Source: Escherichia coli
GTDB taxonomy: Bacteria > Pseudomonadota > Gammaproteobacteria > Enterobacterales > Enterobacteriaceae
NCBI RefSeq assembly: GCF_003334305.1
Contig: NZ_QOWS01000017.1
Strand: one strand, 5' to 3'
DNA: 64,000 bases
The position numbers were made by a program, and so were the translations under genes. Of this stretch, positions 9,350-11,819 are shown piece after piece; position 1 is the first letter of the stretch; the number at the start of each line of letters is the position of its first letter. The notes under the pieces are model-generated. The model had not been told where the DNA came from. It saw nothing but the letters and a program-made list of their open reading frames with translations, and did not search any database.

Positions 9350-11089
9350 TCAACTCAACGCCCCCATAATCTTCAACTCCAGCTCATCCGGCACTTCGTT
9401 ATACGACAGCACATGCAGCCCCGGCGCAAACAACCTTGCATAACGCGCCAGCAAAGGGCGCAGCTGCGGTGGCACCAGCAGCACCGGGTCTTTCCCCGCC
9501 GCTTTCATCTGCTCTTTCACCTGTGGCATCGTACTCTGGAACTGGTTGAGCATATTCGGGTCCACTGGCACGCTGTCGAGCATCACTTTACCGCCCTGTT
9601 GCGCCTGATTCACTAGGTTAGTCAGCAGATTTTCCAGCTCATTATTCAGGGTATACACCGTCAGCTCCTGCTTGCGAACGAACGGATGGGTAATGCTGCG
9701 CCGCAGCGCCAGGCGCACATCGGCTGCCAGCAGAATATGATCTTTGGTCACCGCGCTACTGGCGACCAGCACGGTGGCGATGGTGACGATATCGCGCAGG
9801 GAAACGCCTTCGGTCAGCAGCGCCCGGTACACTTTCAGCAACTGGCTGTAATTGAGCACCGCGCTTAAATCCTCCGCCAGGCGCGGTGCCATCGACGCCA
9901 AACGGTTATGCAACTGCGTAATATCGTCATAGTTAAATAAATCAGGAATATAGCTGCGCACAATCTTATTTACATGGGTAGCAATCACGCTGGCGCTGTC
10001 GATCACCTGATACCCCATATTCAGCGCCTTCGCTTTCTGCGCAGGCTGGATCCAGGTCACCGGCATCCCGTACGCCGGGTCGTTCCCCAGCACGCCGTCT
10101 ATCTCGCCGTAGGTTTCGCTGGAGGGCAGCGCCATCAGTTTATCCGCCGGAATATCCGCTTCATCAGCCTTAATGCCGTTGATGAAAATAGCGTACTGGC
10201 TGGGCTTAAGGCGGAAGTTTTCCCGAATGCGGATCTCCGGCAGCAGCACGCCGTTGCCGTCGGATATCACCTGTCGCACGCCGCGAATACGCTGGGTGAG
10301 CGGGTTGCCCTGGGCTTTGTCCACCAGCGCCACCAGCTTGTAGCCGAGGCTTAAGCTGATGGGCTCGATCAGCGGAATGGTTTCCCAACTGACCTGTTGC
10401 TCGCTGGTTTCGGTGATGGTGCGGGTCAGCGTTTCGAGACTTTTCTCTTCCGCTTCCGCCGCCTGCGGGCGTTTGCTCATCCGCCAGCCGGTAAAGCCAA
10501 GCAGGGCGCTGAACAGCAAAAACGGCAGATGTGGCATTCCAGGCACTACCGCCAGTACGAACATAATTCCGGTAGCGGTGTAGAGCACCGATGGGCTTGC
10601 CAGCAACTGGTGACGCACGTCATGGGCGATATCGCCGTTGTCGCTGACGCGGGTGACGATAATCGCCGCCGCGGTGGAGAGTAGCAGGGAAGGGATTTGC
10701 GCCACCAGCCCGTCGCCGATGGTCATCAGCACATACTGCTGGAAGGCGGCGTCGGCGCTCAGGTTGTATTTGAAGATCCCGATACAGACGCCGCCGATCA
10801 GGTTGATCGCCAGAATCATCATCCCGGCGATAGCATCCCCGCGCACAAATTTCGATGCCCCGTCCATCGCGCCGTAGAAATCGGCCTCGCTGGCAACATC
10901 TTTACGTCGGGTTTGTGCCTGCGCCTGATTGATCAACCCGGCATTAAGATCGGCGTCAATCGCCATCTGCTTACCGGGCATCGCATCCAGGGTAAAGCGG
11001 GCTGAAACCTCGGAAATACGCTCGGCCCCTTTGGTGACGACAATAAAGTTGATTGTCAACAGCGTCAGTAAATCCGAGCGTGAAAGCAT
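9350..11089 (-). pseudogene. lfhA: lateral-flagellar (Flag-2) export protein LfhA remnant, N-terminally truncated FlhA homologue
   Basis: 579-aa ORF matching the C-terminal cytoplasmic domain of FlhA-family proteins; corresponds to the K-12 fhiA/lfhA remnant. Confidence 0.75.
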
Positions 11090-11819
11090 TATCGCCGCGC
11101 TGCACGGGCAGTCGATTTTTAACGGTGGTGGGCTGTCGCCGTTAAATAAAATCAGCCCGTCTCATCCGCCAAAACCTGCCACCGTGGCGGTGCCGGAAGA
11201 GACGGAGAAAAAAGCGCGTGACGTCAATGAGAAAACGGTGCTGCTGAAGAAGAAATCCGCCACCGAGCTTGGCGAGCTGGCAACCAGTATCAACACCATT
11301 GCCCGTGATGCGCATATGGAAGCGAATCTGGAGATGGAGATTGTCCCGCAGGGATTACGCGTGCTGATTAAAGACGACCAGAATCGCAATATGTTCGAAC
11401 GCGGCAGCGCGCAGATTATGCCGTTCTTTAAAAGGCTGCTGGTGGAGCTCGCGCCAGTTTTCGACTCGCTCGATAACAAAATTATTATTACCGGGCATAC
11501 CGATGCGATGGCCTACAAAAACAATATCTACAACAACTGGAACCTTTCGGGCGATCGCGCGCTTTCAGCTCGTCGGGTGCTGGAAGAGGCCGGAATGCCG
11601 GAAGATAAAGTGATGCAGGTAAGCGCAATGGCGGACCAGATGCTGCTGGATTCCAAAAATCCGCAAAGCGCGGGCAACCGGCGCATTGAGATTATGGTGC
11701 TGACCAAAAGTGCGTCCGATACGCTGTATCAATACTTTGGTCAGCATGGGGATAAAGTGGTGCAGCCGCTGGTGCAAAAGCTGGATAAGCAGCAGGTGCT
11801 TTCGCAGCGAACGCGTTAA
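10929..11819 (+). pseudogene. lafU: lateral-flagellar MotB-like protein LafU remnant (OmpA-like C-domain); 5' end fused to the lfhA remnant
   Basis: ORF overlaps the lfhA remnant on the opposite strand; C-terminal OmpA/MotB-like peptidoglycan-binding region (…ITGHTDAMAY…GNRRIEIMV…). Confidence 0.65.

Follow-up and report, generated by a model that had tools for sequence, protein, structure and literature searches.

A region of 2,470 nucleotides (positions 9350 to 11819) in the window, the 64-kb stretch of Escherichia coli DNA analyzed here, carries the canonical scar of Flag-2 deletion in E. coli, an identification to which we give a probability of about 97%. The scar itself is already known and is ordinary for this species: the fhiA and mbhA genes of K-12 are described as the terminal remnants of Flag-2 in PMC3032704, which cites Ren et al. 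2005 (J Bacteriol 187:1430) on this point, and Flag-2-negative Escherichia albertii carries the same 2.5-kb remnant (PMC11420993). A sequence-only reading of the window had proposed a Flag-2 deletion and had named alignment to an E. coli strain with an intact cluster as the check; base-by-base alignment to EC361 bore this out and disclosed a clean loss of 34,830 bp, which in EC361 accommodates 39 annotated flagellar coding sequences. The deleted segment measures 35.0 to 38.1 kb in three other intact strains. Homology to lfhA ends at position 11053 and homology to lafU begins at position 11051, and the three nucleotides GAT (11051 to 11053) constitute a microhomology common to both parental sequences at the junction, with breakpoints at lfhA codon 130/131 and lafU codon 52/53.

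A lateral-flagella cluster of approximately 35 kb normally occupies the stretch between lfhA, at the end of a minus-strand operon, and lafU, at the end of a plus-strand operon. One deletion removed everything from lfhA codon 130/131 to lafU codon 52/53, and two 5'-truncated gene ends were thereby joined back to back (5' to 5') at GAT; the joining was probably illegitimate or mediated by microhomology. Each gene closes its operon and the two face apart, and therefore both remnants lack a start codon and a promoter of their own. Since neither remnant has its native start codon or promoter and the interior of the cluster is gone, the strain is almost certainly unable to build the second flagellar system. 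The earlier claim to this effect is supported by the population data given below; the 64-kb window itself shows only that no interior genes lie within it, and we infer from the population data that Flag-2 is absent from the rest of the source genome.

The lfhA and lafU remnants

The lfhA (fhiA) remnant occupies positions 9350 to 11053 on the minus strand and comprises the 3' 1,704 nucleotides of the gene, encoding LfhA residues 131 to 697 and the stop codon, with 0 of 1,704 differences from intact lfhA of EC361. Compared with the 697-residue LfhA of that strain, exactly 390 nucleotides, or 130 codons, have been lost, as have the start codon and, upstream, the lfiMNPQR-lfhB operon with its promoter. 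The N-terminal truncation on the minus strand that had been proposed was confirmed: the open reading frame (ORF) at 9350 to 11089 (579 amino acids) matched the FlhA profile TIGR01398 (E = 3.7e-178) only over profile positions 114 to 677 of 678, and its score of 593.9 bits lies below the cut-off of 772.1 for a full-length FlhA/FHIPEP export gate. Hydropathy analysis places the break inside the hydrophobic segment at LfhA residues 118 to 136, most of which is lost along with the segment at 21 to 39; the hydrophobic segments at residues 205 to 300 and the cytoplasmic domain are retained. A full-length lfhA with an N-terminal membrane domain, the finding that would have spoken against a deletion, was not recovered on realignment, since the first 130 residues are gone, the later membrane segments being kept. 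In 13KWH46, a strain in which the region is 100% identical and present as a single copy, the NCBI annotation pipeline (PGAP) calls an FlhA pseudogene that is "incomplete; missing N-terminus."

The lafU (mbhA) remnant, on the plus strand at 11051 to 11819, comprises the 3' 769 nucleotides from LafU residue 53 to the stop codon and differs from lafU of EC361 at 12 of 769 positions. Relative to the 307-residue LafU, 155 nucleotides including the start codon are missing, and residues 1 to 52 are gone; hydropathy indicates that the single transmembrane helix (residues 35 to 53) is lost. The OmpA-like peptidoglycan-binding domain is kept. The plus-strand ORF at 10929 to 11819 (296 amino acids) matched the LafU family NF005273 (E = 6.3e-143) only from ORF residue 41, and it is solely the intact C-terminal 85% of the protein that lifts its score to 475.6, above the cut-off of 383. 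Truncated LafU clusters of 261 residues contain PF00691 only, without the PF13677 MotB plug, and the remnant thus lacks the combination of N-terminal helix, plug and OmpA-like domain that defines a functional MotB/LafU stator. Both remnants are probably non-functional pseudogenes.

As had been reported, the two ORFs overlap (161 nucleotides, 10929 to 11089), but the gene remnants do not, as they abut at the 3-nucleotide microhomology. The overlap is an artifact of ORF calling, each frame running past the junction into the antisense of the other gene: the 12 extra codons of the 579-residue ORF (11054 to 11089, minus strand; MLSRSDLLTLLT) are antisense lafU and not lfhA, and, according to the ORF listing and the LafU profile, the 296-residue ORF gains 41 codons at its upstream end (10929 to 11050, plus strand) that run through antisense lfhA. 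A MotB/LafU-like ORF on the plus strand was thus correctly recognized, but the overlapped sequence taken for its 5' part is antisense-lfhA run-on, and lafU itself is 5' truncated. PGAP annotates a 261-residue LafU coding sequence at 11034 to 11819, with a start codon inside antisense-lfhA sequence, and calls the remnant an ordinary coding sequence of 261 residues in 8/8 annotated scar strains (262 residues in SCU-171). This call is an annotation artifact that is spreading thousands of "LafU" proteins, with one cluster holding 6,260 sequences.

Distribution of the scar in E. coli

By megablast, the 2,470-nucleotide region was present in 5,421 of 5,426 complete E. coli genomes. In 4,072 of the 5,421, at least 80% of the query was found in one place; in the remainder the query was split over two places, and full-length flhA and lafU were annotated. 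A junction-spanning 126-mer was contiguous in 4,086/5,426 genomes, and this number of independent complete genomes in practice excludes an assembly artifact at the junction. DNA of the interior lfgE-lfgG segment was detected in 1,279/5,426 genomes (24%), and the number of split arms, calculated as 6,704 places minus 5,425 records, is likewise 1,279; scar genomes therefore lack the cluster, and scar and cluster are mutually exclusive. The scar is accordingly carried by about 75% of E. coli, in agreement with De Maayer et al. 2020 (PMC6993521), who give the truncated lfhA/lafU pair for 76 of 100 E. coli strains. MG1655, O157:H7 and six further strains align ungapped across the junction with the same 3-nucleotide overlap, the lfhA arms of the six further strains being 93.6 to 97.5% identical.

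Intact Flag-2 loci of the E. coli 042 type (EC361, PCN033, Esc8 and GMM076) have arms homologous to those of the window, the left arm of EC361 being 100% identical, and carry between them an interior of 34.8 to 38.1 kb (lfhB to lafT) that is absent from the window. There, the two fragments are adjacent and divergent with no Flag-2 gene between them (junction at 11051 to 11053), and BLAST of the 34.8-kb interior against the 64-kb window returned only matches of 32 to 95 nucleotides to one repeat at 5228 to 5371. This short repeat, which matches several intergenic spots in the Flag-2 cluster of EC361 (78 to 100% identity), is probably a REP-type element. A different, partial loss of Flag-2 was seen in E. 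coli D72 (NZ_CP035312.1), in which an IS1A element lies between a truncated lfhB and lafA; about 27 kb of the cluster is gone, and lfhA and lafU are full length.

The patchy occurrence of Flag-2, found in 24% of genomes, and the horizontal acquisition reported for some taxa in PMC6993521 could be taken to mean that the scar is the ancestral state and that a minority of strains acquired Flag-2 by insertion. We assign this a negligible probability, and as an account of the origin of the scar it is refuted: an insertion cannot make full-length, in-frame lfhA and lafU from two truncated fragments, and every intact allele has the missing 390 and 155 nucleotides directly adjoining the remnant sequences. 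Intact strains could nonetheless have regained the cluster through homologous recombination in the arms.

Gene neighborhood

The gene order dinJ-yafQ, yafL, lfhA remnant, lafU remnant, dinB is as in K-12, and the annotation of 13KWH46 (yafQ, dinJ, yafL, hicB, hicA, FlhA pseudogene, lafU, dinB, yafP, rtcB, prfH) places the scar between the yafL side and dinB. The K-12 fhiA/mbhA scar agrees with that of the window in its fragments, their divergent orientation, the position next to dinB and the junction nucleotide; it differs by 4.8% in the lfhA arm and 2% in the lafU arm, and in three features of the neighborhood. A hicB/hicA toxin-antitoxin pair (8618 to 9245, minus strand) separates yafL from the lfhA remnant, at the place taken by rayT (yafM) in MG1655, and each of these arrangements is found both with the scar and with intact Flag-2; NCBIfam gave no match to the two small ORFs at 8618 to 9266, and the HicA and HicB names are those assigned by PGAP in the identical strain. 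On the other side, yafP directly follows dinB (11890 to 13394, with an overlapping ATGA), and the yafN-yafO toxin-antitoxin pair of K-12 is absent. Positions 13640 to 15390 hold an intact rtcB-family RNA ligase gene (NF007153, E = 2e-193) and, according to PGAP in the identical strain, an intact prfH; in K-12, both rtcB and prfH are truncated pseudogenes.

Sequence conservation of the remnants

Nine diverse E. coli scar alleles contain no stop codon and no indel in 2.47 kb. Their mean pairwise dS is 0.21 for lfhA and 0.11 for lafU, and dN/dS is 0.021 and 0.048, respectively, the same as among five intact alleles (strains with intact lfhA and lafU, including D72 with its IS1 partial interior deletion). 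Open frames and low dN/dS are not what would be seen in an old, freely decaying pseudogene. They are no proof of function either, being expected if the scars are young relative to the diversity of the alleles or if the arms are continually converted from selected intact alleles.

The question arises whether the remnants are alive, with truncated LfhA (FHIPEP loop, four transmembrane segments and cytoplasmic domain), LafU (OmpA-like domain) or both expressed from start sites that happen to lie near the junction and maintained by selection. Compatible with this are the open frames and dN/dS of 0.02 to 0.05 in the nine scar alleles, the frames that are also open in five other taxa, the 261-residue LafU coding sequence called by PGAP, the detection of fhiA mRNA in O157:H7 by quantitative reverse transcription-PCR (PMC6863780) and the ciprofloxacin-tolerance phenotype of the Keio mbhA mutant (PMC13131330), which is more likely to reflect a polar effect on dinB, 70 nucleotides downstream. 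A promoter scan gave five matches, which are consensus matches only, against 2.2 +/- 1.5 in shuffles; a sigma-70-like match immediately precedes the ATG of the 579-residue ORF, and the promoter-like matches of the region do not rise above shuffle expectation.

We nevertheless hold selection on the remnants to be very improbable. Third codon positions account for 208 of the 241 variable lfhA sites, and most variants are common to scar and intact alleles; the shared lfhA polymorphisms comprise 153 synonymous and 13 non-synonymous changes. Scar arms are, moreover, identical or nearly so to local intact alleles, and shared polymorphism together with matching arms therefore explains the low dN/dS through either a recent origin or conversion by functional copies. 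The two kinds of allele, scar and intact, are interleaved, and some are identical up to the junction: the scar of cS91a differs from intact Esc8 at 0/1,704 and 1/769 sites and lies about 100 sites from other scars, and the MG1655 scar has its junction-proximal haplotype in common with D72. At sites 9, 48 and 67 nucleotides from the junction, scar and intact alleles alike occur with either flanking single-nucleotide polymorphism state, giving all four combinations. LafU without its transmembrane helix would, to judge from hydropathy, be unable to reach the periplasm. Scar remnants do decay, as follows from the E. albertii type strain NBRC 107761, in which an interruption follows codon 336 of the lfhA remnant; the protein collection also contains many shorter LfhA fragments of E. 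coli, to which contig-end truncation may contribute, and full-length and truncated forms probably share one 90% cluster, in which contig-end fragments confound counts. De Maayer et al. (PMC6993521) also locate the remnants mainly in taxa that still hold intact loci. A further argument against function comes from laboratory practice. The mbhA gene serves as a neutral integration site, which we take to be why it is frequent in metabolic-engineering papers.

A separate observation concerns the first 69 nucleotides of the lafU remnant (11051 to 11119), which are invariant in 14/14 E. coli alleles (nine scar and five intact); 25% of third positions vary elsewhere in lafU, and the invariance is a post hoc observation in a small sample.

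The junction in other genera

En bloc lfhA-lafU deletions of the same architecture as that in the window occur in other Enterobacterales and were counted in 531 of 4,028 strains by De Maayer et al. 2020 (PMC6993521). The text consulted in the papers on these deletions contains no statement of a nucleotide-identical junction across genera. Our own comparison combined a protein search with the 579-residue ORF and a degenerate-pattern scan of species-representative genomes; the scan returned at least 120 stretches, mostly from Betaproteobacteria, and the scars taken from it are those among the matches listed.

Truncated LfhA ORFs of other taxa switch at the same residue (...T|INF(I/V)VVTKGAE) into antisense-lafU-like sequence, and their contigs carry the same divergent pair of truncated FHIPEP and OmpA genes. 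The same junction position was found in Atlantibacter, Enterobacter sp. Ap-916 and Ag1, a metagenome taxon, Cedecea sulfonylureivorans-like strains, E. albertii, Erwinia persicina and Kluyvera ascorbata, with E. albertii, Enterobacter sp. Ag1, C. sulfonylureivorans and E. persicina added by the pattern scan among the matches listed. All junctions read, in the lafU sense, ...AA(G/A)TT followed by (G/A)AT and lafU codon 53 onward, and the microhomology amounts to only AT or GAT (2 to 3 nucleotides).

In the three taxa compared (Atlantibacter, an H16N7-like taxon and Kluyvera), the scar arms match the local intact allele. Atlantibacter differs from it at 16/1,701 positions in the left arm and about 6/838 in the right, the H16N7-like taxon at 6/1,701 in the left arm, and K. 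ascorbata at about 12/838 in the right arm; the nearest arm difference lies 72 to 155 nucleotides from the junction. Of the 42 nucleotides next to the junction, 8 differ between E. coli and Atlantibacter, each scar having the local variants, and the genera therefore share no junction core that is identical by descent. The scar of Enterobacter ludwigii EnVs2 (CEFQ01000004.1) has the same lfhA breakpoint, but its lafU breakpoint is unlike that of the window, lafU being kept from about residue 17 (junction AAAATTGAT|CATCAAACGC); it arose independently, with the left breakpoint in common.

Several candidate determinants of the junction were considered and set aside. The junction sits in an 11/15 imperfect direct repeat (GTTGATGATCATCAG / GTGGATTGTCAACAG) that is present in five intact alleles and to which the "direct repeat" cited by De Maayer et al. 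(PMC6993521) from Ren et al. presumably refers. A binomial estimate of p ~1e-4 per pair predicts hundreds of such pairs between the two arms, and the repeat was rejected as a special determinant. The lfhA breakpoint lies inside a conserved palindrome, TGATGATCATCA (codons L-M-I-I), that contains GATC; cutting of the MutH or restriction type at this site was rejected as a simple model, since cohesive-end joining predicts one extra GAT and the E. coli lafU breakpoint has no GATC. Two 17-bp palindromes, AAGTTGAT-G-ATCATCAG and CTGTGGAT-T-GTCAACAG, could have been the targets of a site-specific recombinase; this is not supported because the retained right half-site is not conserved in Ap-916, VALL22 and Erwinia, though the junction position is. 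A LexA box at the junction was dismissed with its spacing off by one. An Rfam search of positions 7000 to 14000 found no known RNA family.

Discussion

The recurrence of one junction across genera is, on the sequence comparisons available, a lead for a dedicated study and is not established. Our tentative preference, held at somewhat less than even odds, is that the lfhA-lafU junction is a deletion hot spot, at which several E. coli lineages and at least six other enterobacterial taxa may each have lost the same 35 kb independently and at an identical nucleotide. The occurrence of the junction across genera and families, with local arm sequence up to the junction itself, and the break of lfhA at the matching point in E. 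ludwigii favor this hypothesis, but no sequence determinant was found, given that the 11/15 repeat is not special and the lafU half is not conserved in three taxa. Almost as probable is that the scar had one or a few origins and that homologous recombination spread the junction, the arms later undergoing gene conversion on a fine scale. Published estimates place short-tract gene conversion in E. coli at or above the level of mutation, which would erase linkage within tens of nucleotides, but homologous exchange between genera whose arms are about 62 to 82% identical is expected to be vastly rarer than de novo inactivation. The little weight that is left falls on some process that is neither a hot spot nor spread, which we regard as unlikely.

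The identification of the scar places the strain among the 75% of E. coli that lack a second flagellar system, a state that is textbook knowledge for K-12, and the scar is useful both as a typing marker and as a warning for annotation. If the hot spot is real, the recurrence of a 35-kb deletion at one nucleotide with a microhomology of only 2 to 3 nucleotides would point to an unrecognized site- or structure-directed deletion mechanism; alternatively, if the recurrence holds, it would reflect very efficient recombinational spread of a loss allele. Should the recurrence be upheld, either process would explain the undecayed appearance of these "pseudogenes."
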